Source: Macrostomum lignano
Taxonomy: Eukaryota
Reading direction: 5' to 3'
Assembly: GCA_002269645.1 (NCBI GenBank)
Contig: NIVC01003230.1
Span: 1-34,381, forward strand
DNA length: 34,381 nt
Positions 1 to 28,063 of this stretch are shown here, one piece after another; the first letter of the stretch is position 1, and each line of letters opens with the position of its first letter. The notes under the pieces were generated by a model, which did no database searches, was not told the DNA's origin, and saw only the letters and a list, made by a program, of their open reading frames with translations. Made by a program: the position numbers and the translations under genes.

Positions 1-255
1 GAATCACCATACATACTGACAAACTCTGAGTTTCTACGCTTTTATATCTACCTGGAGAGCTAGAGAAAGACACCAACCAAGAAGAGCTACAGATCCATAC
101 TTCAGCCTTGATGTACATAAAATAGACAGACATTTTACCTCCGACTCCGGTGACTATTACTTTTTATCTCAGCCTTTAACCCTAAATCCCCCACACGGTC
201 ATTCACTAGCTGAACTCCTAGTGATACCAGCTGACAAGAAATTAATAAAATATTA
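1..255 (+). CDS. 3' fragment of an unknown viral ORF continuing from outside the window
   Basis: Open frame ...RHQPRRATDPYFSLDVHKIDRHFTSDSGDYYFLSQPLTLNPPHGHSLAELLVIPADKKLIKY* ends just before the A-rich ATG at 264. No family recognised. Confidence 0.4.
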
Positions 256-263
256 AAATAAAA

Positions 264-699
264 ATGACAAAGATGAAACCAGAACCATCAATAAACTCAA
301 TAAAATCATTGAATCAAAGAAACCAGGTTTATATCAATTAAAGGTGTCAAAGTAAAATCGATCCCACGCAGCAAATAGTTCAGTGTAATGACAAAGACAC
401 AGCATCACAAGATGAAAAGTCAGGAGGAATCCTACCATTAGCAGCTCTTATTCCGATCATTGCAGGCGCTGTAGTGCGCAGGTGGCAGCTGGAGGTGTAG
501 CAACTGCTGTTAAAGCTGGAATGATAGAGCCCACCAGCTGGAATTGCAAAAGATTGCAAGAGACAAAGGTATAACAATTAAGGCAGGAGAGGGCTGCCCG
601 ATCGTGATGATTGTGAATGAAAATTCTGTAAGCAAGTCTGACATTGTCAAAGCCATCATGACACTGCACAATGCTGGGTTTACAATAATGCGGATGTGA
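264..699 (+). pseudogene. Adenovirus pX/mu-like (Polinton PX-type) core protein precursor, frameshifted; absent from the ORF track
   Basis: Manual translation across shifts gives KSGGILPLAALIPIIAGAV..VAAGGVATAVKAG/NDRAHQLELQKIARDKGITIKAGEGCPIVMIVNENSVSKSDIVKAIMTLHNAGFTIMRM*. The first part resembles adenovirus pX GGILPLLIPLIAAAIGAVPGIASV. AAAAATG start at 264; TGA at 697-699. Confidence 0.75.
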
Positions 700-822
700 T
701 GAGGTTTAAAACCCCACTTTATCCAGCTTCATAAACCTAAAGCTACTGATAGGATGTAGAAACAGTTCAACTTTTCTATCAGGGTGGTCACCCTCAAAAT
801 TTTTTTTATATTTTCGAGAAAA

Positions 823-3800
823 ATGCCAAAAGCCAATCCAGCAAAGATTTAGTCAACAAATATTTTTCAAAAGGCGTCTCATTTCAAGACAAAAGTAATT
901 ACTAAGAGAAGCATGTAAACAAAAGTTAACACCGACCCTGGTCACCTGGGAAGCTATGAAAAACAGTTGGAAATCATCAATCAATTAGAATCCAACCAGT
1001 ATGCGCCTATAAAAATTCTGCAAAGGAACACCAAGAGAGGAGTCGCAACTTAGTTAACAAATACGAAACTCTCACTGGTGAAAAAGCAAAGTACCCACAA
1101 AATAAGCAGGAACAAGAGAAATTAGAGCAATTAATCCATTTAAAAGAGTCGGAGCTTGCCATTGAAGAGATTAATTTTGCACAGAGAAGTTTACAGAACA
1201 TTACATAGAGTACACAATCCCAATAAACGGCACCAACGGTACCACCGCAAACATCTACGACTATAAAGACAGCATCCAATCAGTTGTTGATCACACACTC
1301 AAAACACGCAAGACTTTAAACTACAGATATCATTCAAGATTGCGTTTTATATGCCTGCAAAACCCACTGAGCATCTCGAGTATTACATGACAACAAAGGC
1401 AAAGCCATTCACCCCACAGACACACTGGATCCTTTCCTTCAAGATGTCAATAAGAAAATTGAAGCGTTTACATCCAGAGGTTCCGGATGGGTCGTGGGAG
1501 GGATTCAAAGAGCGACTGTCATGGTCATGAAATATGACCCACTTAAAGCCTCCTCTTATATAGAGCTCCCGCATAAGCTAGCCGGCAAAAAAGCTTGCAT
1601 AAATGTTAAAAATAAAGACAATTGCTGTGCTCTATGGGCAGTTCTTTCTGCACTTTTTAGTGTCCTCACCACCCCGAAAGAACCTCAAATTATCAAAATT
1701 ATTTCAACTACTATCTCATCGAATGCGAAAAGAAGGGAATCAGGTTTGACAAAGGAGGCTTGGCGATCTCTCAGATCCCAAAGCTAGAAGAAGTGTTTAA
1801 TAACAAAATTAGAATCACAGTCTTTGAGTGGAGTGAAAAAACTGAGAAAGTTCAACCGGTCAGATGTAGCAAAGACGTTTTAGATCCGAGGGGAAAAGGC
1901 GGACTGAAGTGGATCTTCTAGTGATTGGTAATTTACTAGAGGAGGCTCACTATGTTTGGATTAAAGATCTTTCAAGACTCATTCACAAGCAGTTGAATAA
2001 TCATCACGAGGCTGTTGCCATCTGCCGCTTGTGCCTTAAGCATTACAGTGGACCTGAACGCTTTGAAAAGCTAACAGAGCATGAATTATCATGCGAGGAT
2101 CACCCGACAAACTGCTCTCTTCCTTCAGCTGAAGAGAAGTATCTCCGGTTTAAGAACTATCACAAGATGGAGAAGCTCCCATTTGTTGTATATGCTGATT
2201 TCGAATGCTCAATCATGCCGGAAACTCAAAAACAAACTCAAACTCAAAAACATGTCCCCAATTCAGTAGCATATGCCTTTATTAATACAAAAGGACTTGT
2301 TGAGTATAATTATTTCTTTGGAGAGCAGTGTGTGGAGCAGTTTATTGCCAGAATGTTAGAGTTGCAAAAAGTGATTAGCACCCTTCAACCTGTTCCAATA
2401 ATGATGACTGAGGAGGATGAAAGTAATTTCCTATCAGCAACTCATTGCCACATCTGCAGGAAACATTTAACTTGCACTAATATTAAAAACCCCACCGTTA
2501 GGGACCACTGCCACTTTACTGGGAAATTTAGAGGTGCAGCGCATAACACCTGTAATCTAAAGCTAAAATCGAACATTCATGATCTAACGATATTTTGTCA
2601 CAACGCAAAGAACTATGACATGCATTTAATAGTTGAAAAAATCGGCATGATTCCAGACATACACCTTGATTGCATCGCAGAGAACAAGGAGAAGTTTAAG
2701 TGTGTTGATATTAAACAGGATAATTCGGGTACAGGTAAAATAAGACTGAAGGATTCATATCAATTTCTAGCTGCCAGTCTAGACGAACTAAGCAAGAATC
2801 TAAAAGATGAACAATGTACATATACAAAGATGTTTGCAAGTAAAATTAACAACACTGATGAATCATTTAAACTCCTGAGAACCAAAGGCTTCTACCCCTA
2901 TGAAAATATTACTGGGTATCACGTATTTGAAGAAGGTTTACCACCACAGGAGAAGTTCTTTTCAAAGCTAACAGACTCTGGAATCTCTGACAAAGACTAT
3001 GAGCACGCGAAGCATGTCTATAGTTACTTTAATTGTCAAAACTTCTTCCAGTATCACCTGCTTTACCTCTTCACAGATGTGTTTCTGCTGGCTGATGTGT
3101 TTGAAACCTTCAGATGCACCTGGTACACAGCATATGGCCTCGATCCAGCACATTATGTGTCTCTGCCTGCCACTAGCTGGGAATCTTTGCTTAAAATGAA
3201 ATGGGATCAAGATCCAGATTGGTACATTGAACTTCTTACAGACATTGACATGTACAATTTTGTCGAATCGTCAAAGCGAGGGGGAATCTCAATTTGTGTT
3301 AACAGGTATGCAAAAGCAAACAATCCCTACATTGAATCTTACAATAAGGAGCAACCCTCAAACTACATTACTTACTTGGACGCTAATAATCTCTACGGGT
3401 GGGCGATGAGTCAAGATCTTCCAGTTAGAGATTTTCGATGGCTACCCTCATCAGAATTAAATGGGACTTTTCATTGGCTGCCATTTATGAGGTTGATGTT
3501 TACATTCCACCAGAGCTTCACGACTATTTCTCTGACTTTCCACCCTTCCCAGAGAACATCAAGTGCCGAAAATAATCGAAACTCCCAATGATAATAATGG
3601 AACTTGGCACCTGTCAGGAACAGAAAAAGAACATACAGAGAAACTAACACAGAATCTAAACAACAAGACACGTTACAAAATCCATTACAAACTGCTTCAG
3701 TATTTTATCTCACTTGGTTGCAGGGTCACCAAAGTTCACCGGGCTCTTACATTTACAGAGGAAGCGTGGATGAAACCCTACATTGATAAGAACACCCAGT

Positions 3801-4657
3801 TTAGGACCAAAGCAACCAACGACTTTGACAAGAACCTCTTTAAGTTGGCCAACAACTCTGTCTATGGCAAGACTCTTGAGAATGAGCGGAAAAGAACAAA
3901 CCTGAAACTTGTTACCTCATCAGAGCCTGATGTTATTCAGGCAAATATGTCAAAGCCAACATTCAAAGAACTCCATATCTTTAATAGCTACTTAGGTGTG
4001 ATCATATTTTACAAAACCAAGGTGACGCTGCGCAAGCCGATCTATACAGGTGTCACTGTTCTCGACGAATCAAAACGTCTGATGTACCAATTCTTCTATG
4101 GCATGAAGCAGCAGTACAAGGATAAAATGAAACTCTTGTACACTGACACAGACAGTTTTATTATGGACATTCAAACAGAAGACATTTATCAGGACATGCT
4201 GCAGCAAAAAGAGTTGTTTGACTTGTCTGAGTATGATAAATCTTTCAGGACGCTGAATGGTGATCAAGTGTTTGACGCCACTAACAAGAAAGTGATTGGG
4301 AAAATGAAGGACGAGATTGCTGGTGACATAATCACTGAATTCATTGGGTTGAGAGCAAAGTCCTATTTTATAAAATGTGAGTCGTCAGACCCAATAAAAA
4401 AATCAAAGGGAATTCCGAAACGTGTGGTTAGGAAGGAAATTAATGAAGCTGAATACAGAGACGCCTTGAATTGCAACAAAAAGACATCACATGAGTTCTC
4501 AAAGCTACAATCTAAAAACCATATTATTCACACAATTCAGCAAAAGAAGATTGGACTGTCAGGTGCAGATAACAAGAGATTCATTTTTGATGACAATATC
4601 AACAGTCTACCGTTCGGGCATTGGAGGTTAGGTTTAGGAGGTGGATATTGGGTTTAG
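823..4657 (+). CDS. pPolB: Protein-primed family B DNA polymerase (terminal-protein region, exonuclease, polymerase), broken by several -1 frameshifts
   Basis: N-terminal Polinton motifs FTSRGSGW, YDPLKASSYIELP, KACINVKNKD and IPKLE. ExoI VYADFE, ExoII HNAKNYD, ExoIII YLFTDV. Pol A YLDANNLYGWAM, B KLANNSVYGK, C LYTDTDS. The missing EVDVYIPPELHDYFSDFPPFPE segment lies in a third frame at 3489-3555. The start at 823 (AAAAATG CCA AAA) is inferred. Confidence 0.95.
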
Positions 4658-4690
4658 GTTTGAGAGAAAGTTTAATAAACCTCATAAAAA

Positions 4691-5092
4691 ATGACAACAA
4701 ATAACTTTCTTGAAGATTTGGCTAACGAACTGGAAATCCCAAACTTTAGAGGAATATTTATGAGGGACACTCTGCCTGATTTTCCTCTAAGAAAGGAATG
4801 CGGCATCATGAACTTTGACACCACCGATAAGCCAGGATCTCATTGGGTTTGCTGGGTGATTGATCCCGATCGCAAGCACAAGTGTTATTACTTCGATAGC
4901 TATGGGACGGCAGTACCAGAAGAGCTAAGAAATTATATGAAGGGAAAAAATAATAAAAAAATTTATCGCTCAGACTTTATTCTCCAAGGTCTTAGCAGTG
5001 ATATTTGCGGTGAGCTGTGCATGACTGTTTTGTATGCAATGACCAAAACACGAAAGACCTACAAGGAAATTATTCTTGGCTGTGTTTCATAG
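4691..5092 (+). CDS. Adenain-like (C5/Ulp1-fold) maturation cysteine protease
   Basis: 133 aa with GSHWVCW (His), YFDSYG (Asp) and LQ...ICGELC (oxyanion Gln, catalytic Cys); A-rich start context. Confidence 0.93.
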   Translation: MTTNNFLEDLANELEIPNFRGIFMRDTLPDFPLRKECGIMNFDTTDKPGSHWVCWVIDPDRKHKCYYFDSYGTAVPEELRNYMKGKNNKKIYRSDFILQGLSSDICGELCMTVLYAMTKTRKTYKEIILGCVS

Positions 5093-5096
5093 GGGT

Positions 5097-5753
5097 TCAT
5101 TGTGCATTTCTCGTTGTACTTCTCGTTGTCCTTCTTTCCACATAATGTTGAAAAACTTTCTCGAGTTCATTTCTCAGCTGACTCATGTCATCAGTACCGA
5201 CCATGTTCAAGTTCATTCGAATTGATTGTTCATAAAGATCCTGAATGGTTTTGAACTCATCCTCTGAAATGAACTTATCCTCGATTGCCCTTGAAATGTA
5301 CCCTATGATTGATGTGTGCACCCCTTTCTCTTTTACTTGCTTCTCCTGTAGCTGCTTTAGTTTTTTTCGCCTGTTTCGCGCTAATGCTCCAGTAATTGCT
5401 GAAATAAGTCCACATGCAGCACCCACAGAGCCGAGCGGGATTGCGATTGGGGCTGTGATGACTGGCAACGTTGAGACAGCTGCAGCAGATCCAGATAGAA
5501 CAGACACAGATCCTAGAATCATATTGCTGTAGTCGAAAAATTTACAGTGGCTTTCATAGCGTTTAATTTTCTTTGTGTTGTGGAAAATATTTTTTTCAAG
5601 ATCATCGCGCATTTTTTGAATCTCCACTAGTCGAAACTGCTGAGAGTTACAAGTAATGACAGGGTAGAGTTTTTGTTGCTCATATTGGGGTGCACTAGGT
5701 GCACTAGGTGTTGTGGGAGCGTTCGGATCATAAAGAGAATTTTGAGCATCCAT
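5097..5753 (-). CDS. Polinton membrane-hairpin protein (probably the GasderminX/PW-type conserved gene)
   Basis: 218 aa: Pro-rich N-terminus (PSAPSAP, LYPVI), coiled coil, a long Gly/Ala-rich hydrophobic segment (ILGSVSVLSGSAAAV...GLISAITGAL), then basic RNRRKKLK. The family name is recalled, not tested. Confidence 0.75.
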   Translation of the reverse strand: MDAQNSLYDPNAPTTPSAPSAPQYEQQKLYPVITCNSQQFRLVEIQKMRDDLEKNIFHNTKKIKRYESHCKFFDYSNMILGSVSVLSGSAAAVSTLPVITAPIAIPLGSVGAACGLISAITGALARNRRKKLKQLQEKQVKEKGVHTSIIGYISRAIEDKFISEDEFKTIQDLYEQSIRMNLNMVGTDDMSQLRNELEKVFQHYVERRTTRSTTRNAQ

Positions 5754-5861
5754 TTTTAAGGGAATTTTTTTAAAAAAATCGGCAACTAGTTGGTGGTGGT
5801 TAGATTTGTTTTACGGTTGATTGCTTCGTCTGCAGTCACGGCAACGGGTCTCTGAATCTGC

Positions 5862-6605
5862 CTATTCATTATCTGTGAGCTCCATTCTACGCATGATCTC
5901 AAACAAGTCGGTTGGATCACTTGTTTCCCTTGTGGTCTGTGGTGCCTCTTCAGCGTCAATGTTTTTGAGATTATGCAAGCGTTCAAGACGACCGATTCTT
6001 CTCACCGATTTCTGCCATTCGGTAAAAACTAAATCTACAAAGACTTTATTTGCAGTAATTCTTACTTTGATTTGATCATGCAACGCTGTTGACTGAGTCA
6101 TGAACTCTTCTAAATTCCTCACTTTACATGTGTTGGTTGCGACGTTTTCTTTAATTCTATCATGCAATGCTGTTGACTGGTTCATGAACTCTTCTAAATT
6201 CCTCACTTTAACTGCGTTTGTGAAAACTCCTTCTTCAAGAATGCGCATCCGCCTATCAATGGAGTTTCTCAGAAGATTAATTGTCGATGCTAAATTTGTT
6301 CTTAAACCGTTGATTTGCGAGACTATCGAAGTTATTTCTGACCTAAGTTCATTAGTTGCGTTTAACAACGGCACATAAAGCTTATCACTTTCAAACTTCT
6401 GCCTAGCTACTTTAAGCCTGAGATCTTCCATGTTTATCTGTAGCTGGTGCATGGAGCGCTCTAATTGTTTCAGTCTGTTTTTATTCAGTTTGATCTCTGG
6501 GATCTTTTCGTCGCTGTTGATATATCGCCTGTCAAGGATGGATACTTGAGCTGATGTAAGAGCGCTGTTGCCAGAAATGGATTCACCTGCAAAGTTTATC
6601 GACAT
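5862..6605 (-). CDS. Coiled-coil protein with a 28-aa internal tandem duplication; function unknown
   Basis: 247-aa intact ORF with heptad pattern; KVRNLEEFMxQSTALHDxIK occurs twice (84-bp DNA period). Confidence 0.8.
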   Translation of the reverse strand: MSINFAGESISGNSALTSAQVSILDRRYINSDEKIPEIKLNKNRLKQLERSMHQLQINMEDLRLKVARQKFESDKLYVPLLNATNELRSEITSIVSQINGLRTNLASTINLLRNSIDRRMRILEEGVFTNAVKVRNLEEFMNQSTALHDRIKENVATNTCKVRNLEEFMTQSTALHDQIKVRITANKVFVDLVFTEWQKSVRRIGRLERLHNLKNIDAEEAPQTTRETSDPTDLFEIMRRMELTDNE

Positions 6606-6621
6606 CTTTTAATAGCAAATT

Positions 6622-7422
6622 TTAAATTACAGTTCTTTTTTCTTTGCTGATAATCACAAACTGGTAAGGCTGATTCCACTTGTCATAGCAAAGATTAACG
6701 AATTCCTCTTGTGAAATCTTTCTGCTTGAGTTTTTTGTTGGATTTATGAAATAGGCAGGCGCAATGACCTCATTGTAAAATCTTTTTAACCTGTCCTGTG
6801 GAATGGTTGGAAACAGGAGAATCAGATTGCAGTTCCCACGAATTGTTTTGTTCGGGAGCTCGAACCAGTTCTGTGCAATGTAAATTACATTACAATTGTT
6901 ATGTCGCCCTCTTGTAAAATAGTTTTCTATCTGCTTCTGTGGGCCTGTCATACAATCATCAAAGACGATCAAATGCTTTCTCCCCTTTTCTAGCTCATCT
7001 GGTTGGGGTAGAAGTTTGGTCTTTGGATCAGCCTGTGGATCTCCATAGGTGAACACTTTAATGTTCTGCCATTTTTCATTGTCTTTGAGGTGCTTTGCAT
7101 ATTCGGCAGCTACAATTTCAGGGTTACTGGGAAGGCTCATTTGGTTATTAAAACATGCAATAATGTCCTCTTTGTTCAGCTTGTTTTGAAGCCCTGCAAT
7201 CAGCATTCTATACTCATCTTGATACAGTGTGGGAGAGTAGATGTGCAGAGTGTCATAGTCGATAAATCCAGGTCTAAGAAGCATGTTAAAGACTCTGAAT
7301 GTTTTACCTGAACCTGACGAACCAACAACAATGCATCTGAAGTGACTCGGGATTGACTCATGATGAGAAAACTTAATCTGATTACGCGTCCAGTGAGGAT
7401 TGAAGTCGTTTGAAAAGTCCAT
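6622..7422 (-). CDS. A32/FtsK-like genome packaging ATPase
   Basis: Walker A GSSGSGKT, Walker B LIVFDD, and the A32-type FTRGRHNN motif followed by VIYIAQ. Confidence 0.95.
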   Translation of the reverse strand: MDFSNDFNPHWTRNQIKFSHHESIPSHFRCIVVGSSGSGKTFRVFNMLLRPGFIDYDTLHIYSPTLYQDEYRMLIAGLQNKLNKEDIIACFNNQMSLPSNPEIVAAEYAKHLKDNEKWQNIKVFTYGDPQADPKTKLLPQPDELEKGRKHLIVFDDCMTGPQKQIENYFTRGRHNNCNVIYIAQNWFELPNKTIRGNCNLILLFPTIPQDRLKRFYNEVIAPAYFINPTKNSSRKISQEEFVNLCYDKWNQPYQFVIISKEKRTVI

Positions 7423-7464
7423 TTTTTTCTATGATGAAAAAAAAATAATTAAATAATAAATAAT

Positions 7465-7653
7465 TTAGATGTGTCATTTTGGGACTTAGATGTGTCATTT
7501 TGGGACTTAGATGTGTCATTTTGGGACTTAGATGTGTCATTTTGGGACTTAGATGTGTCATTTTGGTACTTAATTGTGTCATTTTGGGACTTAGATGTGT
7601 CATTTTGGGACTTAGATGTGTCATTTTGGGACTTAGATGTGTCATTTTGAGAC
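7465..7653. repeat. 9 x 21-bp tandem array inside the element
   Basis: Unit TTAGATGTGTCATTTTGGGAC, head to tail; copies 5, 6 and 9 carry substitutions. Confidence 0.97.
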
Positions 7654-7696
7654 TAGTCTTGTACCTTTACATTTCTTGTACCCTCGGAAAGTACCT

Positions 7697-8083
7697 TTAG
7701 TCAAATTTGAAACCACTTCCTTTTTTAATGCTTGCTCTCATCTTCTCATAGACTGCAGGGTCCACACTGTCTGGGTTTGGGGCCAGCGGGGCCAGCGGAG
7801 CCAGAGGTTGAATCTCTTGTTTAGGTGTTACAGTATCCTTTATCTTTTTGGCTGCTGTGGCTACACTGCCAGCCGCTTCGGCAACGTTCTTGATGTTCTC
7901 TTTGTTCTCTCCAATGACCTTAAAAATCTTAGCCCCCTGAGCGATCAAATCGGCAAGGCCATTCCCGGAGCGCTCTTTTCTTGGATAGTGGCCTGCAGGG
8001 AAAAGTCCAGATCCGCGTTTAATAAGATTAAGTTCCTCTTTGTCATAGTATTTGTCAATGTCTTTTTCGAAAATAAGTGGCAT
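7697..8083 (-). CDS. Small basic putative virion core protein (128 aa, MPLIFEK...KKGSGFKFD)
   Basis: It has its own AAAAATG at 8083, 16 nt after the restored stop of the upstream gene, and contains three (K/R)xGxG motifs. It is the C-terminal part of the 528-aa ORF-track entry. Confidence 0.7.
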   Translation of the reverse strand: MPLIFEKDIDKYYDKEELNLIKRGSGLFPAGHYPRKERSGNGLADLIAQGAKIFKVIGENKENIKNVAEAAGSVATAAKKIKDTVTPKQEIQPLAPLAPLAPNPDSVDPAVYEKMRASIKKGSGFKFD

Positions 8084-8099
8084 TTTTACTTGAAATAAA

Positions 8100-9283
8100 T
8101 TATTTTTTGTTGAACCGCGAAAGCAGAAGCTCTCTCGCCCTTTTATCGATGTATTTTCTCTCAAGCATTTTGTCCAGGATGTTGACAAATTCTTTTCTAT
8201 TCTCTCTTTCATTCCGGTCTTTGCCGCTCCTAGAAGAACCGCTACTCGCTTGTAGATTTCAGCTATTCCTTTTCCAGATTTGGGTGGTTGGTCTTGGGGT
8301 TGTGGAGTTGGTTGGGCTTGTGGCTGCTGGGGAGGTGATCCAAAAGACTGCTCACTTTCAGAGATGGAACTGTCATGTGGCGCCTGTCTTTGTTGAGGTG
8401 TGAAAACTCTTTGCTTGATTCTGTTCATTCGATCTGGAGAGTGTTGTTCTAAGTGTTGCCAGTCTGTTGGGTGATCATTTTTATACTTAGCTACTTGAGT
8501 CGGATCTGCATTTTCCAGTTGCCTGAGTACTTGTTCTTCTGTGAAATGTTGCTGCTGTTGTGGCGGTTGCTGTTGTTGCTGTTGTTGTTGTTGTTGTTGT
8601 CTTATGACCTCTTCCTGATCCGGCAAACCAAACCATTGTTTAAAGTATTTGTATTTTCTAAATCTGTTCAAGACAATCCCGTTTTCATGTAAAATTTTCA
8701 AAACACCGTTGTTCTTGAGCATATCTATATCCCTATCGAGAGCAAAGGTAACAAGATCTTTGTAATTTTTGAGCTGCTTTTTAGACGTATTCTCTAGATT
8801 TTTAGTCATGTAATCAAGTAAAGTTTGAGTGAACTGGATTCTTTTAGTTTTTGCGCCTTTATTGATTGAAATGTTTTCCTTTGTCACTTCAATGTTGTAA
8901 TCCACCGGTTCCTTGGTAATTTCTTTTCGCCAGGCGCTAATTCCAAAAATATATTTTCCATCATCCACTACGGGGCCAAAAAAGTTATCCGTCACTTTCA
9001 TCTGCACCGGTTGTCCTGGTTCCTGAGCCTGTGGTTGTCCTGGTGAAGATGGGATTTTACCCAATGTGTTTTGCAAGTGGCTCTCTTGAATATCATCAAC
9101 TGCTTCCTTCACAGTGTCGAGGTTTTTCTTCGCTTCTGTGTATCCGGGTTTGTGAAATTCGGTGGCTGCTTGGACAAACTCATTGTAGGATTGTTGCTCC
9201 TTATTTATTAGCCCGGTAACTCGTTTCTCTGCTTGTGCTAGCTTCTCCAATTCAGATATCTGCTGTGTACTTTTTCGCTTCAT
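8100..9283 (-). CDS. Polinton conserved protein with polyQ/PQ linker and a C-terminal RxxxLLG...GN helix (PZ/Oncoid-like); 1-nt deletion near 8213
   Basis: Restoring one A in ACCGGAAT gives ...KRVAVLLGAAKTGNERENRKEFVNILDKMLERKYIDKRARELLLSRFNKK* with TAA at 8102-8100. This matches the RL..L.GS..AGN C-terminal pattern I recall from Polinton proteins. Confidence 0.7.
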
Positions 9284-9313
9284 TTCTTATTTTATTTTAT
9301 TTTTAGTTAAAAA

Positions 9314-10600
9314 ATGAACGACCCACTGACACCAGTTTTCTACAAAATTAACAAGCCTATTTTGAGTGATGATAGCACAATCAAAGCGACTCAGGTAAGA
9401 GTTCCCAGTCAGGAAAATCAGAATGAAACTAATCTTGGTCCTGGCCAAACACTGACATTTACATACAATGGATGTTCGTCTTTGGTTAGTGTGCACAGTC
9501 TTAAGAGCGGCTTCCATATGACATTTCAATTCAAGACAAAGGGTGGTGCGGATGCGGCTCGTGCTAACGTTGACAAGCATGATGCGGATGTGGCTCTGAT
9601 CAGTAACTTTTGGGCGTACATGTTCAAGGAGTTTAGTGTATCGAATGGGAGCACTGAGTTGGAGCGAATCGCCAACTTTGGAATTGTCTATGACGCTCAT
9701 TGTTTGATCGAGAATCCTGATTTTATTCAATTGGGAAGTGGTGCGGGTTTTATTGCAGACGAAAAAGAAGGAGATATCAATGACAGTGGCTATAAAAAGA
9801 GGAAGAAGAGATACAACTATGCATTGCAAGGTGCAGATGATGCTGCTAAAAACCCGCTGTATCGGTCTGTTGATGTATTTGTACCACTGAGATTCATGAG
9901 TGGATTCTGTAATACATTTAATCGACTGACTAGTAACTTTAGCTACACCTTTAGGATGACTAGAGATGATCGCAGTAGAGTGTTGTGGACTGGGGCGGAT
10001 CACACAAGGATGGAGGTGAAGCTAACCGGAATCGAGCTGTATTTGGAAGTCATTGAGCCAAAGACTGCACTAAAAGCGGATTATCTTAAGGCAATAGAGA
10101 AGGACATTGATGTTGCATACACGGCCTACATGTGTCGAGATGAGCGAAACGAAACTAGAACAAACATCTGCATTAAAGAGGGATCATGCAGCAATCCACG
10201 GTATATTATTATTAACATGAGAAACCCAAATAGCATTATACGCTACATGCATGGAGACGTGCGGTCCATTCAGCATGAAATCAGTGATAATCTTTACCCT
10301 GCACTGCCACAAAATGGAGATTTCAGTCAGAACAAGATTAGCAAATTTTACAGCGAGTTGGTCGACTTGGCTGTGAAAGAGAACAACGGAATTGCTATCA
10401 CTGCTCTTCAATATGGAACTCTATATCCAATGTTTGGCGCTGATGTGTCTGCCAGACAAATGCCTACTGATAACAGCCCTGTGAATATCGTGACTAACAT
10501 TGAGAGGACTGTCGCAACACCCGTGGACCTGTACATTATCTATGCATTTGAGAGGAAGGTGAAGCTTAACATGATCAACAATTCATCCAGTAAAGTTTAA
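9314..10600 (+). CDS. Major capsid protein (double jelly-roll, hexon-like)
   Basis: Intact 428-aa ORF, rich in predicted beta-strands, with an N-terminus like Polinton MCPs (PILSDDSTI...). Size and position next to the penton fit. The fold is inferred. Confidence 0.82.
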   Translation: MNDPLTPVFYKINKPILSDDSTIKATQVRVPSQENQNETNLGPGQTLTFTYNGCSSLVSVHSLKSGFHMTFQFKTKGGADAARANVDKHDADVALISNFWAYMFKEFSVSNGSTELERIANFGIVYDAHCLIENPDFIQLGSGAGFIADEKEGDINDSGYKKRKKRYNYALQGADDAAKNPLYRSVDVFVPLRFMSGFCNTFNRLTSNFSYTFRMTRDDRSRVLWTGADHTRMEVKLTGIELYLEVIEPKTALKADYLKAIEKDIDVAYTAYMCRDERNETRTNICIKEGSCSNPRYIIINMRNPNSIIRYMHGDVRSIQHEISDNLYPALPQNGDFSQNKISKFYSELVDLAVKENNGIAITALQYGTLYPMFGADVSARQMPTDNSPVNIVTNIERTVATPVDLYIIYAFERKVKLNMINNSSSKV

Positions 10601-10625
10601 ATATTTTTTTTTGTGGGTGAAAAAA

Positions 10626-11489
10626 ATGGAAGCTATAGCCGAAAGACTAAACAATATTATTTCGCACTCCAAGGAGAGCATTCCTATTACAATAACTGGG
10701 CGGATTAATGACTCAAACGGGATATTTGTTCAAAAATTAGAGCAGGCGATTAGCCTGGATCCAGGTGCTAATTACCATGTCTATCTTAACGACTTCACTG
10801 GTTGGTCAAACGTTCCCAATGTGATGGCAGCAAATAATAAGTTTTATTACAAATGGAAAGGTGCAGCAGCAGACCCTGTGGTATTCCATGTGAGCACGCA
10901 AAGTGTGGATACCTACAATAACTTTCTAGAAAACGTCTTTACTAAAAGAGGCCATTTCGAGACACCTGATGCGAGTAAGCCAGAGAAGAAACTGTTCCCT
11001 GTCAAACTAACCTATGATCTCACTGTAATGAGAGTGGTCATGCAAGTTCACAAAGATGCGGAGGTTGAGTTTAAAGATGACACTTGGTATAGGGAATTGG
11101 GATTCGTGAAGAAAGTTTATAAGGCAGAATCCACAGCGCGGACTGTCACTCAAGCATCGGGGGCCGTTAGCATGGCCCGGGAAAGTGTACGCGGTTTGTT
11201 CTTAGCACCCAATATAGCAGACATTGTAAAGGGTTTGAATATTCTAATCAGAAGCAATCTCAGTCTTGATTGGGTATTTAAGGGAAAGCGAACGAATATT
11301 TTGTACAACATCTCCAACTCTGTTGCTGGAGGACAGATGGTGGTAGAGAAACCAAATCCAGTGAAAAGAGTTGTATTGAGTAATAAAGAGATTCACGAGA
11401 TTGTGCTACAGTTTGAGACTGAAGATGGGATGGGCGTTGATTTTAATGGGGAAGAGTTTGTATTGACGTTGATCATTGAAAGAATGTAA
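10626..11489 (+). CDS. Minor capsid protein (penton, single jelly-roll)
   Basis: Typical Polinton penton C-terminus LQFETEDGMGVDFNGEEFVLTLII and internal NILIRSNL. The ATG at 10626 in AAAAAAATG context is preferred to the TTG at 10611. Confidence 0.85.
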   Translation: MEAIAERLNNIISHSKESIPITITGRINDSNGIFVQKLEQAISLDPGANYHVYLNDFTGWSNVPNVMAANNKFYYKWKGAAADPVVFHVSTQSVDTYNNFLENVFTKRGHFETPDASKPEKKLFPVKLTYDLTVMRVVMQVHKDAEVEFKDDTWYRELGFVKKVYKAESTARTVTQASGAVSMARESVRGLFLAPNIADIVKGLNILIRSNLSLDWVFKGKRTNILYNISNSVAGGQMVVEKPNPVKRVVLSNKEIHEIVLQFETEDGMGVDFNGEEFVLTLIIERM

Positions 11490-11493
11490 GAAA

Positions 11494-11733
11494 TCACAAT
11501 TGTCTAATGATTTCTACAAAGTTATAGTAGCTGTCGTAATCTTTTACATAGGTTACTCCATACTTATGAAACCAGTGTCTTTGGAGAGCTAGATTAATAT
11601 TAGGGACATTGATATCAACGTCGGGCCAATATTTTCTCATGTACTCGCTGCATTCAAGTTTGCATCGGTACTTACTCTTGTAATTAGGCTCGTGCGCTTT
11701 GTAATAAGAACCTGGAGAGACAACTGGAAACAT
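11494..11733 (-). CDS. Small Tyr/aromatic-rich hypothetical protein (79 aa), last gene before the candidate TIR
   Basis: TAAAAATG start; its stop lies 4 nt from the penton stop, the same packing as other element genes. Confidence 0.55.
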   Translation of the reverse strand: MFPVVSPGSYYKAHEPNYKSKYRCKLECSEYMRKYWPDVDINVPNINLALQRHWFHKYGVTYVKDYDSYYNFVEIIRQL

Positions 11734-11739
11734 TTTTAG

Positions 11740-12274
11740 AGAAAATTTAATTTTTTTTCAAAGGGTAAGGACCCTGGGTTAGGGGGTTTAAAGTTTTAGG
11801 GATCTGGTTTCATGTTGCGAATTGAATGTGGGGAGAAGAATGCAGATTGTTTTCTGATTGTTTCGAAGATGCTATGGGTGGATGTCAGTGGATTATGTCA
11901 GTGTCAGTGAGCATAACAGGTGTCAGTGGACCCATATTCCCATATTCTGTCAGTCATAATATGGATGGATTTAATGGGATTAAAGTTTTCGGATCAAGTG
12001 CAACCCCTCCCCTTTTTCAAGATTCTGTCGGGATAATATAGATAGATTTAATGGGATTATGGAGGACGTTTTGTGAGCGAGTGCGACCCCCCTTTTTTTC
12101 TGATTCTGTCAGGGATAATATGGATGGATTTAATGGGATTATGGAGGAGGTTTTTGGAGCAGGTGCGACCCCCCTTTTTTTCTGATTCTGTCAGGGATAA
12201 TATGGATGGATTTAATGGGATTATGGAGGAGGTGAAAAATTTTGTCCCAGAAGCCCCCTCATGACATCTACTCT
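11740..12274. repeat. Candidate right terminal inverted repeat containing about 3.5 x 80-bp direct repeats
   Basis: Non-coding. Units start ATTCTGTC at 11944, 12022, 12103 and 12185. The minus strand begins (AG)AGTAGATGTCATGAGGGGG. The partner TIR is not in the window. Confidence 0.55.
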
Positions 12275-12422
12275 TTTGTTTTACTGTGTGTTTTCCTGCT
12301 ATTTAAAATCTTCTTAATTTATTTTCGAGCTGCAGTAACAAATCAGTGTAAATATGAGCAGATGAGCTGATTTCTATTGGTTATCCAGTTGGCAGGACTG
12401 AATGCCACGCTTCACAGCTGCG

Positions 12423-12859
12423 TCAGTTCGCTTCATCACCCCCATCGGTATTCACTGTTGCACAGGAAATTTTCAATTTTTGCTTCAACGCAGCAATCGC
12501 TTTTCTTTGTTTCTCTCTCTCCAAATTGTTCCGTTTTGCTTTGCTTTGCCTGTGTTTTTCTGCTTGCTTTTTTGTTGATGCTTTTTTTGCTTTTTGTTGA
12601 TCGCTTTGAACTTGAAGCGGCAACGCTGCGAGAGACACGAGAGAGTCGAATCTAGTCATGACAGAGGGCCGCGACCGCAGGACTCGCTCCGCTGTCAATT
12701 TCTTTGCTCCAGCGATCGGTCCTGCGGCCTTGTGGCTCTCCGACCTGTAAATAGATACCGTACTACTGTTTTGCTTGTAGTAACAGTACACTGTGTACTT
12801 GTATTGTACCATGTAATTGAACTCGTTTTCAATATGATTTTCTTCATAATTAGTGGCGC
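12423..12859 (-). CDS. Last two exons (12859-12810, 12744-12423) of a putative spliced host gene with a basic Lys-rich C-terminus
   Basis: The acceptors TTCCTATAAG| and TTTACAG| and a phase-matched 65-nt GT-AG intron give APLIMKKIILKTSSITW-SESHKAAG...GDEAN*. AATAAA lies on the minus strand at 12323-12318. Confidence 0.4.
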
Positions 12860-13905
12860 CTTATAGGAAGTGCACGATGTACTATTTGTTGTTAAGTCTA
12901 GCATCAAGATATCTGTTTCATAAGATTGATTATATTCGTATAGATTATCAGCTTTGTTGAATGCTTTTGTTTATTTATTTCGTTTCAAAATGCTGCTTTT
13001 GATCGTTTCCTTAAACGGCACAATTTTTGGAGTCAATGGTCTCAAATTGTATAGAAAATTTGCTTACATATGCTTTGTTTAATACTTACAGTAGCGTAAA
13101 CGTTTTATTTAACTGTTTCGTCAGACGCACTGTTGTAACGTGACTTCAATTTTAAGCTGAAAAATCAATAAATGAATAAACCCAGTGTTTTATTTAGAAT
13201 CTATCCCACATAGTTAATCCTTTCCCAGTTTCACATCCCATACATCTGTTTTTGATTCAAATACAAGTGTTCACTAGCTATTAAACATATACTTATGATT
13301 GTCGATTGATTTATGCTTCAAAATTATGTACTGGTCTACTTTTGTTGATTACTTCTAAACGATACAGCCTACTTTCCATGCTTGAGTAGTAGAGAAGTGG
13401 ATCGTTCTTAAATTTACCTACAAATATTGTAGTAAAATCGACCTCTGGTTTTCTTTCTTAAACAAGCAAGACTCAAACGGGCGCAGCGGGGGTATAAGAG
13501 GCCTGTCGCTTTGAAAAGTAGCCAAGCTAGCAAAGTTTGTTATCGCAAATGCACAGAGTAGAAACTTTTCTTGAGCTTGCAGCGCGGGGAACCGTTTCAC
13601 CTTGTTGGCCAATGCCGACTTGGAGACGGGGGGAGAGGAGAGGCGGAGGGGTATGCCAGACATGCAGGCTCAAGAAGCTCAAGGGCAGAGAGCCGCCGGG
13701 AGGCTTCCGCAGCTACTGTACGAAAACTTTTCTTTCTGCCCTAAGAATTTCTTCAACTCTTTCATCTGTGCACCTGCTGGCTACTAGAAGAAGCAGAAAA
13801 TTGCGCTCAGGAAACGGGCGGCTTGGCGAGATCAAATCTCACCTGGAAAAGCAGAAGTTAACACGCAGCCAGCTCAGTGAAAGTAATTGTGATTTTCTGC
13901 AACAG

Positions 13906-16900
13906 CGATCCGAATGGAAGACGACGGCGAGGAGCCTCTGAGCGACGGCTCCAGCGATGACAGAGGCTCGGAGCGGGAGGGGGAGCTGCCACAGAATGGC
14001 TTGCGGACTAATGAGGCAGACAGGTGCGCCATTCTGTACGATAAGCAGAACCAGGTGAGTGACATTGACTATAAGTAGAAATTATGGATTGCTAATCTAG
14101 CTAACAGGCAGAGGAACAGACTGGATTGCTAATCTAGCTAACAGGCAGAGGAATAGAGTGGATTGCTAATCTAGCTAACAGGCAGAGGAATAAATGGATT
14201 GCTAATCTAGCTAACAGGCAGAGGAATAAATGAATTGCTAATCTAGCTAACAGGCAGAGGAATAAATGGATTGCTAATCTAGCTAACAGGCAGAGGAATA
14301 AATGGATTGCTAATCTAGCTAACAGGCAGAGGAACAGACTGGATTGCTTATCTAGCTAACATCTAGCTAACAGGCAGAGGAATAAATGGATTGCTAATCT
14401 AGCTAACAGGCAGAGGAACAGACTGGATTGCTTATCTAGCTAACATCCAGCTAACAGGCAGAGGAACAGAATGGATTGCTAATCTAGCTAACATCTAGCT
14501 AACAGGCAGAGGAACAGAATGGATTGCTAATCTAGCTAACAGGCAGATAACAGAGTGGATTGCTAATTTAGCCAGCAGGCAGAGGAGAACAGAATGGATT
14601 GCTAATCTAGCTAACAGGCAGAGGAATAAATGGATTGCTAATCTAGCTAACAGGCAGAGGAATAAATGGATTGCTAATCTAGCTAACAGGCAGAGGAACA
14701 GACTGGATTGCTAATCTAGTCAGCAGGCAGAGGAACAGAGTGGATTGCTAATCTAGTCAGCAGGCAGAGGAGAACAGAGTGGATTGCTAATCTAGCTAAC
14801 AGGCAAAGGAGAACAGAGTGGATTGCTAATCTAGCCAGCAGGCAGAGGAGAACAGAGTGGATTGCTAATCTAGCTAACAGGCAAAGGAGAACAGAGTGGA
14901 TTGCTAATCTAGCCAGCAGGCAGAGGAGAACAGAGTGGATTGCTAATCTAGCTAACAGGCAGAGGAATAGAGTGGATTGCTAATCTAGCTAACAGGCAAA
15001 GGAGAACAGAGTGGATTGCTAATCTAGCTAACAGGCAGATAACAGAGTGGATTGCTAATCTAGCTAACAGGCAAAGGAGAACAGAGTGGATTGCTAATCT
15101 AGCCAGCAGGCAGAGGAGAACAGAGTGGATTGCTAATCTAGCTAACAGGCAAAGGAGAACAGAGTGGATTGCTAATCTAGCCAGCAGGCAAAGGAGAACA
15201 GAGTGGATTGCTAATCTAGCTAACAGGCAAAGGAGAACAGAGTGGATTGCTAATCTAGCTAACAGGCAAAGGAGAACAGAGTGGATTGCTAATCTAGCCA
15301 GCAGGCAGAGGAGAACAGAGTGGATTGCTAATCTAGCTAACAGGCAAAGGAGAACAGAGTGGATTGCTAATCTAGCTAACAGGCAGATAACAGAGTGGAT
15401 TGCTAATCTAGCTAACAGGCATAGGAGAACAGAGTGGATTGCTAATCTAGCTAACAGGCAAAGGAGAACAGAGTGGATTGCTAATCTAGCTAACAGGCAG
15501 AGGAATAGAGTGGATTGCTAATCTAGCTAACAGGCAAAGGAGAACAGAGTGGATTGCTAATCTAGCTAACAGGCAAAGGAGAACAGAGTGGATTGCTAAT
15601 CTAGCTAACAGGCAGATAACAGAGTGGATTGCTAATCTAGCTAACAGGCAAAGGAGAACAGAGTGGATTGCTAATCTAGTCAGCAGGCAGAGGAACAGAG
15701 TGGATTGCTAATCTAGTCAGCAGGCAGAGGAACAGAGTGGATTGCTAATCTAGTCAGCAGGCAGAGGAACAGAGTGGATTGCTAATCTAGTCAGCAGGCA
15801 GAGAACAGAGTGGATTGCTAATCTAACTAACAGGCAAAGGAGAACAGAGTGGATTGCTAATCTAGCCAGCAGACAGAGGAGAACAGAGTGGATTGCTAAT
15901 CTAGCTAACAGGCAAAGGAGAACAGAGTGGATTGCTAATCTAGCCAGCAGGCAGAGGAGAACAGAGTGGATTGCTAATCTAGCTAACAGGCAGATAACAG
16001 AGTGGATTGCTAATCTAGCTAACAGGCAAAGGAGAACAGAGTGGATTGCTAATCTAGTCAGCAGGCAGAGGAACAGAGTGGATTGCTAATCTAGTCAGCA
16101 GGCAGAGGAACAGAGTGGATTGCTAATCTAGTCAGCAGGCAGAGGAACAGAGTGGATTGCTAATCTAGTCAGCAGGCAGAGAACAGAGTGGATTGCTAAT
16201 CCAGCTAACAGGCAAAGGAGAACAGAGTGGATTGCTAATCTAGCCAGCAGGCAGAGGAGAGCAGAGTGGATTGCTAATCTAGCTAACAGGCAAAGGAGAA
16301 CAGAGTGGATTGCTAATCTAGCCAGCAGGCAGAGAAGAACAGAGTGGATTGCTAATCTAGCCAGCAGGCAGAGATAAACAGAGTGGATTGCTAATCTAGC
16401 CAGCAGGCAGAGAAGAACAGAATGGATTGCTAATCTAGCCAACAGGCAAAGGAGAACAGAGTGGATTGCTAATCTAGCCAGCAGGCAGAGAAGAACAGAG
16501 TGGATTGCCAATCTAGCCAGCAGGCAGAGAAGAACAGAGTGGATTGCTAATCTAGCTTACAGGCAGAGGAATAGAGTGGATTGCTAATCTAGCTAACAGG
16601 CAAAGGAGAACAGAGTGGATTGCTAATCTAGCTAACAGGCAGATAACAGAGTGGATTGCTAATCTAGCTAACAGGCAAAGGAGAACAGAGTAGATTGCTA
16701 ATCTAGCCAGCAGGCAGAGAAGAACAGAGTGGATTGCTAATCTAGCTAACAGGCAAAGGAGAACAGAGTGGATTGCTAATCTAGCTAACAGGCAGAGGAA
16801 CAGAGTGGATTGCTAATCTAGCCAGCAGGCAGAGGAGAACAGAGTGGATTGCTAATCTAGCTAACAGGCAAAGGAGAACAGAGTGGATTGCTAATCTAGC

Positions 16901-19268
16901 TAACAGGCAGATAACAGAGTGGATTGCTAATCTAGCTAACAGGCAAAGGAGAACAGAGTGGATTGCTAATCTAGCCAGCAGGCAGAGGAGAGCAGAGTAG
17001 ATTGCTAATCTAGCTAACAGGCAAAGGAGAACAGAGTGGATTGCTAATCTAGCCAGCAGGCAGAGGAGAACAGAGTGGATTGCTAATCTAGCTAACAGGC
17101 AAAGGAGAACAGAGTGGATTGCTAATCTAGCTAACAGGCAGATAACAGAGTGGATTGCTAATCTAGCTAACAGGCAAAGGAGAACAGAGTGGGTTGCTAA
17201 TCTAGCTAACAGGCAAAGGAGAACAGAGTGGATTGCTAATCTAGCTAACAGGCAAAGGAGAACAGAGTGGATTGCTAATCTAGCTAACAGGCAGAGGAAT
17301 AGAGTGGATTGCTAATCTAGCTAACAGGCAGAGGAGAACAGAGTGGATTGCTAATCTAGCTAACAGGCAGATAACAGAGTGGATTGCTAATTTAGCCAGC
17401 AGGCAGAGGAGAACAGAATGGATTGCTAATCTAGCTAACAGGCAAAGGAGAACAGAGTGGATTGCTAATCTAGCTAACAGGCAGATAACAGAGTGGATTG
17501 CTAATTTAGCCAGCAGGCAGAGGAGAACAGAATGGATTGCTAATCTAGCCAACAGGCAAAGGAGAACAGAGTGGATTGCTAATCTAGCCAGCAGGCAGAG
17601 AAGAACAGAATGGATTGCTAATCTAGCTAACAGGCAAAGGAGAACAGAGTAGATTGCTAATCTAGCCAGCAGGCAGAGAAGAACAGAGTGGATTGCTAAT
17701 CTAGCCAACAGGCAGAGAAGAACAGAGTGGATTGCTAATCTAGCCAGCAGGCAGAGGAGAACAGAGTGGATTGCTAATCTAGCTAACAGGCAAAGGAGAA
17801 CAGAGTGGATTGCTAATCTAGCCAGCAGGCAGAGGAGAACAGAGTGGATTGCTAATCTAGCTAACAGGCAAAGGAGAACAGAGTGGATTGCTAATCTAGC
17901 TAACAGGCAAAGGAGAACAGAGTGGATTGCTAATCTAGCTAACAGGCAGAGGAACAGAGTGGATTGCTAATCTAGCTAACAGGCAAAGGAGAACAGAGTG
18001 GATTGCTAATCTAGCCAGCAGGCAGAGGAGAACAGAGTGGATTGCTAATCTAGCTAACAGGCAAAGGAGAACAGAGTGGATTACTAATCTAGCTAACAGG
18101 CAGATAACAGAGTGGATTGCTAATCTAGCTAACAGGCAAAGGAGAACAGAGTGGATTGCTAATCTAGCTAACAGGCAAAGGAGAACAGAGTGGATTGCTA
18201 ATCTAGCCAGCAGGCAGAGGAAAACAGAGTGGATTGCTAATCTAGCTAACAGGCAGAGGAATAGAGTGGATTGCTAATCTAGCTAACAGGCAAAGGAGAA
18301 CAGAGTGGATTGCTAATCTAGCTAACAGGCAAAGGAGAACAGAGTGGATTGCTAATCTAGTCAGCAGGCAGAGGAACAGAGTGGATTGCTAATCTAGTCA
18401 GCAGGCAGAGAACAGAGTGGATTGCTAATCTAGCTAACAGGCAAAGGAGAACAGAGTGGATTGCTAATCTAGCCAGCAGGCAGAGGAGAGCAGAGTGGAT
18501 TGCTAATCTAGCTAACAGGCAAAGGAGAACAGAGTGGATTGCTAATCTAGCCAGCAGGCAGAGGAGAACAGAGTGGATTGCTAATCTAGCTAACAGGCAA
18601 AGGAGAACAGAGTGGATTGCTAATCTAGCCAGCAGGCAGAGGAGAACAGAGTGGATTGCTAATCTAGCTAACAGGCAAAGGAGAACAGAGTGGATTGCTA
18701 ATCTAGCTAACAGGCAAAGGAGAACAGAGTGGATTGCTAATCTAGTCAGCAGGCAGAGGAGAACAGGCAACGCCAGACACACCCTGCGCTACGCATGCTC
18801 CTACCATAGCGCATTCTCGAAGGCAAGCTGGACCCTCGCGGCCAACCGGGCGACCGCCTCGCCAGCCTCTGCCTGAGCAGGCCGGCTTTTGTAGTCCGGT
18901 CCCTCCGAGAAGTCCTGGAGCCCGGCGAGCTCAGCACGGCCTGGCGCAGCTCCAAGGGCAAGGAGGCCTCCTTCAGCTGCTACAACAGAAACGTGCTGGT
19001 CGGCGTCAAGCGGCTGCAGCTCGGCGGGGTGACGGCCCGCAGCGAGGACGTTCGGCTGTATTCGGTTGGCGAGGACCCGGGCTCCCTGACAGAGCGCGAT
19101 AGCCCGGCGGGCTACCATGAGGCCTATTTCACCCGGGCCGACTTCGAGGACGATGAGGAGCAGCACGAGCTGGCCAGGGCCGCGGTGGCGATGGCAGCGA
19201 AGGAGGCGACGTCCATGCGAGGTCAGCGGCAGCCGTCGAGTTCCGTTATCACGGCGAAGCGGACTTGA
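13906..19268 (+). CDS. Spliced host gene of unknown function: exon 13906-14054 (ATG 13914), 4755-nt intron, exon 18810-19268
   Basis: Acceptor TTTTCTGCAACAG|, donor CAG|GTGAGT and acceptor CTCCTACCATAG| join in phase 0: MEDDGEEPLSD...LYDKQNQ|RILEGKLDPRGQPGDRLASL...VITAKRT*. Codons are GC3-rich. Confidence 0.65.
14085..18766. repeat. About 4.7-kb minisatellite with a 36-39-bp unit (intronic)
   Basis: Consensus TGGATTGCTAATCTAGCTAACAGGCAAAGGAGAACAGAG, with variants clustered in blocks. Confidence 0.98.
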
Positions 19269-26851: not shown

Positions 26852-28063
26852 TCAGCAGCCGCTGAGATGGGGAAGCTGAGGGAAGGGGACGGCTTGACTG
26901 AACAGGGAGTTCAGGCTGTCAGCTGGGGGAATTTCGCCTGCGGCGTCCGACCGGCCGACACCGAGGGGCTCCAGTTGGCGGCGCTGCTGCTGTAGCTGGA
27001 GACGCTGACGCTGCGATCGTACACTTGCTGCGGCTGCTGCTGCTGCTGATGATGATGATGAAGCTGTTGGAGATGCTGTGGCGTCTGGCCGAGCCGGCCT
27101 ATCAGAGGCGAACCGGCGGCGCTTTTGCTGGCTGAGCCGCTTCTGTAGGCAGACGGCGAGGATGCCTGCCGCTGGTACAGCAGGGCCGCCGTGCTGATGC
27201 TGCTGATGCGCCAGCAGCGGCTGCCTGGCTGGCGATCCCTGGCCAATGGAGTCCATGCCAGCCATGGAGCTCATGGCCGTCAGCGGGATGCACTCCGGCG
27301 GCAGCTTCAACCCGTCCGCGCCGACAAAGCCGCCGCTCTTGATCAAACTGCCGGCGTTGAGATCGTTGTCGTTGTCGGCGTCGCGATCCTCTTCATCGTC
27401 GTCTTCGAAGTGCTCGGCCCTCGCGCTGACGCCGCGGCGGCCGATGACTGTTGAGCGCCCGAGACCCGAGCTGCAGCAGCCGCCGCCACCGCCGCCGCCA
27501 CCGCCGCCGCCTCCGCCCGTGGCTTCAAAGTAAACGTAGCGCTTGAAGGCGAAGACGGACTGGAAGGAGCTCGCCAGGATCTGCGCCGAGTGCGCTGTCA
27601 CGGCCACGATGTGGAGGAAAATTCGACGGTCGATGCCGCGGCACCGGCTGACCAGGTACCAGTCCTGCTGGAAGTCGGCGCTGCCCGCCACGTAGCGGCG
27701 CAGGTCGGACTCGACCAGAACGCCGACAATGCTCATGCCGATGGCCATGAGGCCCAGCATGGCAGCTAGCAGGCTCAGCACCATGCTGCTGATTGAGGCG
27801 CGCGCGCCGCCGCTGCCGCGTGAGGTGCCGAGCGCCAGCAGGCCGTTGGCGGCGTAGAAGGCGCCGGTCCAGGTGCCAACGGCCAGGAAGCCGGCGAAGC
27901 ACTGGTCGAAGTGGCATGCGATCGAGGCGACAAACGCGGCCGCGCCTGTGCCGATCTGGGCCAGCGCGGTGGCCTGCACCCGCTTGGCGAAGGGCGAGCC
28001 GCCGCCACTACCGCCGCCGCCGCCTTCGCTGTCGCCGCCGTCTCGAGCACAACGCCGGCACAT
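26852..28063 (-). CDS. Host MS4A/CD20-like four-transmembrane protein with a long low-complexity C-terminal tail
   Basis: Four hydrophobic segments, including the GTWTGAFYAANGLLAL (G-W-G-F) and SMVLSLLAAMLG patterns typical of CD20/MS4A-like proteins. Poly-G/A/Q tail and GC3-rich codons. The ATG at 28063 lies 13 nt after an acceptor (CATACAG|). Confidence 0.7.
   Translation of the reverse strand: MCRRCARDGGDSEGGGGGSGGGSPFAKRVQATALAQIGTGAAAFVASIACHFDQCFAGFLAVGTWTGAFYAANGLLALGTSRGSGGARASISSMVLSLLAAMLGLMAIGMSIVGVLVESDLRRYVAGSADFQQDWYLVSRCRGIDRRIFLHIVAVTAHSAQILASSFQSVFAFKRYVYFEATGGGGGGGGGGGGGCCSSGLGRSTVIGRRGVSARAEHFEDDDEEDRDADNDNDLNAGSLIKSGGFVGADGLKLPPECIPLTAMSSMAGMDSIGQGSPARQPLLAHQQHQHGGPAVPAAGILAVCLQKRLSQQKRRRFASDRPARPDATASPTASSSSSAAAAAAASVRSQRQRLQLQQQRRQLEPLGVGRSDAAGEIPPADSLNSLFSQAVPFPQLPHLSGC

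Follow-up and report, generated by a model that had tools for sequence, protein, structure and literature searches.

The closest described relatives of the element reported here are Polintons (Mavericks) and adintoviruses, the latter forming the former Adintoviridae, now renamed Eupolintoviridae (PMC12451622). According to the available portions of these sources, most vertebrate genomes hold few, mostly degraded Maverick copies, and Maverick particles were unobserved as of 2021 (PMC8097293); among flatworms, 748 copies of the pPolB1 class were counted in 8 of 73 genomes (PMC10748475). Our literature search found no paper on the present Polinton family in flatworms, with Repbase, subscription journals and some supplements outside its scope.

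We analysed 34,381 nucleotides of DNA from Macrostomum lignano (contig NIVC01003230.1, here C3230, positions 1–34381, in the 764-Mb assembly GCA_002269645.1), hereafter the window. The window starts with a contig-truncated Polinton/adintovirus (Eupolintoviridae-like) provirus, which occupies positions 1–12272 (~12.3 kb of ~16 kb) and is intronless and dense in open reading frames (ORFs), at ~40% GC; the remainder of the window consists mostly of tandem repeats. We consider it very probable that the element is a recent insertion from a large provirus family, which likely spreads by integrase-mediated insertion of linear copies that its own polymerase synthesises and that are probably packaged in a jelly-roll capsid.

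The insertion and its family

The right terminal inverted repeat (TIR; 11745–12272, inner boundary approximate) carries 82-bp tandem units (array at 11944–12233), ends in CTACT and matches the left and right ends of full-length siblings. A preliminary description of the window, made from its letters alone, had let the element end at 12274; the exact position is 12272. The sequence CTTTTG follows (12273–12278), and an identical hexamer precedes the left end of the element on another contig, C2302. The window itself begins at the contig start, inside the integrase gene and ~3.9 kb short of the left end, and we rejected it as a whole element because that end lies elsewhere. We located the left end on C2302 from the empty-site sequence: the upstream flank, which matches both empty homologous sites described below, ends in CTTTTG, and the terminus next to it shares its rare subtype with the right end at 12272. 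C2302 carries PLA2, integrase, protein X (pX) and the start of the polymerase gene pPolB, and overlaps window positions 1–1355. Because C2302 supplies the left end beside a matching CTTTTG flank, the insertion is complete in the genome, with a 6-bp target-site duplication. The number of 82-bp units is unequal at the two ends of this insertion, with 9 motif matches in the window and 2 on C2302.

The flank 3′ of position 12272 has four assembled homologues. Two are filled (the window and C2016, with 0 mismatches and 4 gaps where compared) and two are empty (C2218 and C2002, with 97–98% identity). Since two of the four homologous flanks are empty, the insertion is likely younger than their split. 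These junctions also bear on whether the element could be viral DNA in free form, or contaminant DNA, wrongly joined to host sequence, as might be suspected from the window beginning at a contig end and from the many copies that stop at contig ends. The target duplication and empty homologous sites refute this explanation, which we regard as extremely improbable; in addition, hundreds of termini are spread across many contigs, and the element is carried by 20 sequencing runs from 7 studies under one organism label.

Exact termini occur 494 times in the genome, versus 0 for a reversed control. The corresponding ~250 elements are a lower bound because the terminus pattern misses the window's own subtype. 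The copies have AG...CT TIR ends and 6-bp target duplications; among 34 two-ended copies (including two pairs that are duplicate assemblies), the duplication is exact in 21, has one mismatch in 5 and is absent in 8. A DNA search with the genes for the major capsid protein (MCP) and penton gave 471 candidates, of which 40 were scored, the window itself included, at 97–100% identity. Internal stops are absent from 107 of the 118 best-scoring full-length integrase matches and from 94 of the 96 best-scoring MCP matches, both samples being biased towards intact genes. Substitution distances to the window range from 0.4 to 8% over 46 regions, and the nearest copy differs by 40 substitutions in 9897 bases (0.4%). 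The preliminary description had suggested that the element may be young, in agreement with this close copy, the empty sites, the target duplications and the abundance of exact termini. As a hint only, the summed contig depth in run X4 reaches tens to hundreds of thousands over the element, versus ~210 in the flank.

Several derivatives accompany the full-length copies. An 11.3-kb palindromic form (C1652:28604–39932; also in C276 and C3945) consists of an inverted duplication of the capsid-side half, with arms 99.6–99.9% identical. It lacks pPolB and integrase, yet has an exact 6-bp flanking duplication, and resembles a snap-back defective genome. TIR-only derivatives of 640–870 bp and internally deleted ones of 3.6–8.7 kb have exact or near-exact target duplications (C124:22982–23697, C289:58541–59180, C32:1150965–1151833, C544 and C33); they may have been mobilised in trans or deleted after insertion. 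The element's own sequence flanks 4 of 49 termini in a biased sample (C4149, C2829, C1391 and C217), reflecting nested or tandem copies. A 226-aa ORF with no Pfam match over the cut-off adjoins the left TIR in four copies (C142, C217, C3530 and C1190), in a region where other two-ended copies do not align.

Capsid proteins, selection and allele exchange

The genes for the double jelly-roll (DJR) MCP (9314–10600, + strand, 428 aa) and the single jelly-roll penton, or minor capsid protein (10626–11489, + strand, 287 aa), both have open frames. The preliminary description had offered jelly-roll folds as a check on these two candidates, and both predicted models match such proteins. The AlphaFold2 (AF2) model of the MCP is of low confidence (predicted local distance difference test (pLDDT) 54), and DJR capsid proteins fill all nine top places among its structural matches. 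The best is that of faustovirus (Z 10.9, root mean square deviation (rmsd) 6.3, 288 aligned), and the matches also include PBCV-1, poxvirus scaffold, African swine fever virus, EhV, mavirus, Sputnik and adenovirus hexon. In sequence, the MCP matches PF21738 under the cut-off (E = 6e-5); its homologues pass that cut-off, and it also matched a PF21738 Atlas cluster. A sequence search of PDB with the MCP gave no significant match, and its model found many DJR proteins in BFVD with no stand-out adintovirus, the model being of too low confidence for a ranking. For the penton, modelled at pLDDT 76, the closest structure is the mavirus penton (Z 12.7, rmsd 9.1, 237 aligned). Its six best matches are all virus vertex or capsid chains, including PBCV-1, Sputnik, aviadenovirus and EhV, and in BFVD it matched named virophage, adomavirus, MELD and adintovirus proteins.

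A profile search with the MCP gave 497 matches at E ≤ 0.001. Its close relatives are nine proteins at 43–78% identity, from unnamed environmental contigs. In a quick, midpoint-rooted tree of 96 rows without organism names (61 of 156 dropped for length), the MCP falls in a 9-row clade (SH-like approximate likelihood ratio test 100), nested with 19 other unnamed proteins inside the PF21738-matching set. Identity outside the 9-member clade is at most 27%, the alignable ones among the 19 neighbours having 22–27%. The MCP is divergent, as first proposed, and belongs to a distinct unnamed clade. The further suggestion of a new lineage holds at the level of this MCP subclade only, as the tree contains no named reference and pPolB is of a common type (see below). 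Profile scans of viral and metagenome contigs gave no confirmed MCP locus, so the environmental MCPs at 71–78% identity come without gene context. The MCP extends sampling into a clade otherwise known only from unnamed environmental contigs.

To estimate selection, we compared distinct single-base codon variants with the commonest codon in 32 of 35 regions (three duplicate loci dropped), excluding multi-hit codons. The ratio of non-synonymous to synonymous change (omega) is 0.14 for MCP, 0.24 for penton, 0.08 for ATPase, 0.25 for the adenain-type protease, 0.12–0.17 for pPolB and 0.13–0.38 for the unknown ORFs. These values indicate purifying selection on the family genes, including MCP.

The copies also differ in modules. 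ATPase, the ORF termed ORF395 and MCP plus penton each occur as two alleles ~20% apart, and pPolB and protease stay within ~4%. The window has allele A of ATPase and MCP; the B-type MCP and penton are 83% and 78% identical to the window proteins. Across 46 regions (a further 8, which hold duplicates or two copies, were excluded), the allele patterns for polC, ATPase, ORF395, MCP and penton include AABAA (17), AAAAA (8), ABBAA (4), AABBB (1) and AAABB (1), and the ORF395 and capsid alleles are found in all four possible pairings. The longer span of the B-type copy recurs in about 20 of 96 MCP matches, from which we infer that these are B-type. As read from the assembly, the alleles are reshuffled among copies; module mosaicism is described as common in this subphylum in the available part of bioRxiv 10.64898/2026.10.13.758929.

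By analogy with the known family, the element would be excised or copied as a linear genome and replicated by its own pPolB, protein-primed from the TIRs. ATPase-driven packaging and maturation by adenain would follow, then PLA2-aided entry and germline re-integration by the integrase. Module exchange would take place between co-replicating copies, as the allele patterns here suggest.

As an alternative, the family may at present spread within the genome only, as a transposon, its capsid genes being passengers whose selection signal was inherited from viral ancestors, with no particles today. We regard this as a real possibility, if somewhat short of probable. It would accord with the higher omega of private than of shared MCP variants (0.24 versus 0.06), with the target duplications of short TIR-only and deleted derivatives, and with the runs carrying the element, none of which is on record as RNA. 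However, private MCP variants are still depleted in amino-acid changes (32 non-synonymous versus 35 synonymous), few genes have diverged less than MCP within an allele class, and the B-type MCP is paired with the B-type penton in both B-type copies. A stronger view than that of a packaged provirus family is a still-replicating Polinton virus population, comprising hundreds of young proviruses with an unnamed capsid clade and two module-recombining capsid types, whose particles are made in the living host. We hold this to be rather unlikely; if it were true, an animal Maverick virion would be directly observable.

The polymerase gene and frame breaks

The pPolB gene (823–4657, + strand) matches PF03175 (41.2 bits versus a cut-off of 25.8) and, in an endonuclease-VII-like insert, PF02945. 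Its motifs, including Exo I and Pol A, B and C, lie at 1617, 1948, 2191, 2500, 3373, 3842 and 4139, spread over three frames, and the gene aligns to sibling ORFs in about ten pieces. The preliminary description was right about the gene and its catalytic residues and did not notice that its reading frame is broken up. The Cys motif at 1617 and the His motif at 1948, both N-terminal, are putatively vOTU-like. They are common to 104 and 111 of 120 homologues, with no Pfam OTU match, and the endonuclease-VII-like insert is found in 109 of the 120 top homologues. A vOTU has been proposed to cleave the terminal protein, according to the available part of PMC11071308. Long homologues number 4436 at E ≤ 1e-30 among 7999 candidates, mostly at ~40% identity, and the named ones come from insects, cnidarians and molluscs; by sequence, this pPolB is of a common invertebrate type. 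In C217, C27 and C110, the gene is interrupted by foreign insertions of 1.2–7.5 kb, probably other transposons; that in C217 has long ORFs and 266-bp inverted repeats.

The broken frames could mean that this copy is truly pseudogenised in pPolB, integrase and protein X and that the family is a burst that died out recently. In the assembly, pPolB lies in pieces and no examined copy is fully open, as this explanation would have it. However, substitutions should outnumber indels under neutral decay, and the changes private to the window (called at 85–90% agreement thresholds, shared indels lying outside the count) are 16 indels against 1 internal substitution, plus 2 substitutions at the TIR tip. 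Of these indels, 14 fall next to the contig end, within 1.7 kb of it, and all 12 in the overlap with C2302 are absent from C2302. Duplicate assemblies of one locus likewise show an indel excess, with mismatches/gap openings of 0/4, 3/15 and 4/16 (25/15 and 27/10 in two other pairs). At the listed breaks, contigs of four public runs have the sibling form, which bears on the family and not on this locus. We conclude that the frame breaks in this copy are probably mostly long-read assembly indels and not decay, and that pseudogenisation of this copy in an extinct family is quite unlikely. The claim of a potentially active virus has indirect support for the family, from purifying selection, target duplications and empty sites; in this copy, the pPolB, integrase and protein X genes are broken as assembled, probably in large part through assembly error.

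Several observations weigh against a recently inserted, packaged provirus. The whole pPolB is in one frame in 1 of 33 copies, and all tested genes are open in 0 of 20 gene-complete copies. The indel rate estimated from duplicate pairs, ~0.66 per kb per copy, alone predicts 8% open pPolB genes and 0.1% fully open elements, and intact and dead copies are therefore indistinguishable in the assembly. Some copies are really damaged, with 9 distinct nonsense variants and kilobase-size insertions and deletions. For the insertion itself, 12 substitutions and a 27-bp indel separate the window from C2302 in their 1.4-kb overlap, and one contig end may contain reads of sibling copies. The omega values come from copies picked by similarity to the window MCP and penton, and were calculated without transition correction; the mosaics could partly be assembly chimeras, and a target duplication is missing from one of the two copies with B capsids. 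Finally, two runs guessed to be RNA have flat depth over the element, TIR included, far below the element-to-flank contrast of the other two runs, which also suits a transposon without particles. We nevertheless retain the recently inserted provirus, probably packaged, as the reading favoured above.

Gene content, flanks and comparison with described families

Full-length siblings have the order TIR, PLA2, integrase, pX, pPolB, protease, two ORFs, ATPase, two ORFs, MCP, penton, TIR. The PLA2-like gene (PF08398) lies in their left part; in the two siblings read, PLA2 lies on one side of the integrase and pX on the other, each as its own ORF and on opposite strands. The window starts with two genes that the preliminary description had not named. 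The first is the frame-broken 3′ end of a retrovirus-like (rve) integrase gene (1–256, + strand), cut by the contig start, in which the ORF piece at 20–256 corresponds to residues 284–344 of the sibling integrase; the remainder is on C2302, and the rve domain (PF00665) is over the cut-off in siblings. The second encodes an adenovirus protein X (mu)-like core protein (approximately 260–699, + strand) and is also frame-broken; its pieces match a sibling 151-aa ORF that is over the cut-off for PF05829 Adeno_PX (E = 4.5e-7).

Downstream of pPolB, an open frame encodes a 133-aa adenain-type maturation protease (4691–5092, + strand; PF00770 over the cut-off) with His/Asp/Cys motifs, which in a PDB sequence search comes closest to adenovirus proteinase (E = 0.003). 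Two ORFs follow on the − strand. One, of 218 aa (5097–5753; omega 0.24; no Pfam match over the cut-off), has a hydrophobic Gly/Ala-rich segment and look-alikes in unnamed viral and mollusc clusters of the Atlas, and its product is possibly membrane-active. The other, of 247 aa (5862–6605; omega 0.38), is variable between copies and likely coiled-coil, with weak helical Pfam matches only and an 84-bp internal duplication. The A32/FtsK-like packaging ATPase (6622–7422, − strand, 266 aa, open frame; PF04665 over the cut-off) has Walker A/B and RGRHNN motifs. The catalytic residues first reported as visible are found in pPolB, protease and ATPase, each of which has a Pfam match over the cut-off in the dense, intronless layout described at the outset. 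With MCP and penton recognised by structural matches, the full virion module likewise stands.

An intergenic tandem array from a repeat search (7465–7654) contains 9 copies of a 21-bp unit. Beyond it, two genes are fused only in this copy (7697–9283, − strand): the upstream ~395-aa Gln/Pro-rich ORF395 and, downstream, the gene of a small basic protein that has three xGxG[LF] motifs and no Pfam match over the cut-off, a candidate core protein. We rejected a single 528-aa protein here, as siblings have two ORFs and the sequence near 8205 is unlike that of the window in 37 of 37 sibling stretches aligned there. A putative 87-aa stop-to-stop ORF (11494–11757, − strand) has no Pfam match, and the fourth of the four strand blocks originally described depends on it.

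The preliminary description had suggested a flatworm as a possible host. A search for mitochondrial cox1, aimed at the genetic code of the host, gave a weak fragment only; the genome size and the loci assembled several times over would suit a free-living flatworm whose genome is duplicated. In the host flank, contigs of the guessed-RNA runs cover 12299–13273, which holds a 129-aa ORF (12423–12812, − strand); the insertion may lie near a host transcript. Satellite arrays at 14445–18766 (39-bp units) and 28377–29216 (42-bp units) share a related motif in opposite orientation. Between them, a GC-rich, intronless 403-aa ORF (26852–28063, − strand) with a weak CD20/MS4A-like match (E = 0.025) is a probable host gene or exon. 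Inverted arms of 158 nt, 97% complementary around a 146-nt spacer (31083–31544), form a possible miniature inverted-repeat transposable element.

The comparisons that follow refer to the available parts of the cited papers. Like Alphadintovirus-type adintoviruses (PMC8502044), the family has a PF03175-type pPolB, rve integrase, adenain, FtsK/A32 ATPase, hexon-like MCP, penton, PLA2, pX and inverted terminal repeats, and its PF03175-type pPolB, taken together with PLA2 and pX, suggests the Alpha type described there. Unlike these viruses, which have one PLA2X protein, it encodes PLA2 and pX as separate ORFs, and its MCP is at most 27% identical outside its own clade and under the PF21738 cut-off, in a comparison drawn without the Mayetiola and Terrapene references. 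With invertebrate pPolB1-class Polintons (PMC10748475) it shares an integrase-linked pPolB with thousands of ~40%-identical homologues, the class being assigned without phylogeny; it differs in the endonuclease-VII-like insert and in having no recognised fusogen gene. TIRs, 6-bp target duplications, intronless core genes and purifying selection that includes capsid genes are shared with vertebrate Mavericks (PMC8097293). Those Mavericks have a median of 8 copies, and their largest expansions (~280) are described as defective; the present family, in contrast, has at least ~250 copies, mostly within a few percent, and two co-existing capsid alleles. Its hundreds of near-identical copies, capsid selection and two reassorting capsid alleles make this genome a good place to search for animal Polinton particles and to quantify insertion polymorphism. 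In other respects, the architecture and mechanism match those of the described family; the unusual features are the size and youth of the present family, its recombination and its unnamed capsid clade.

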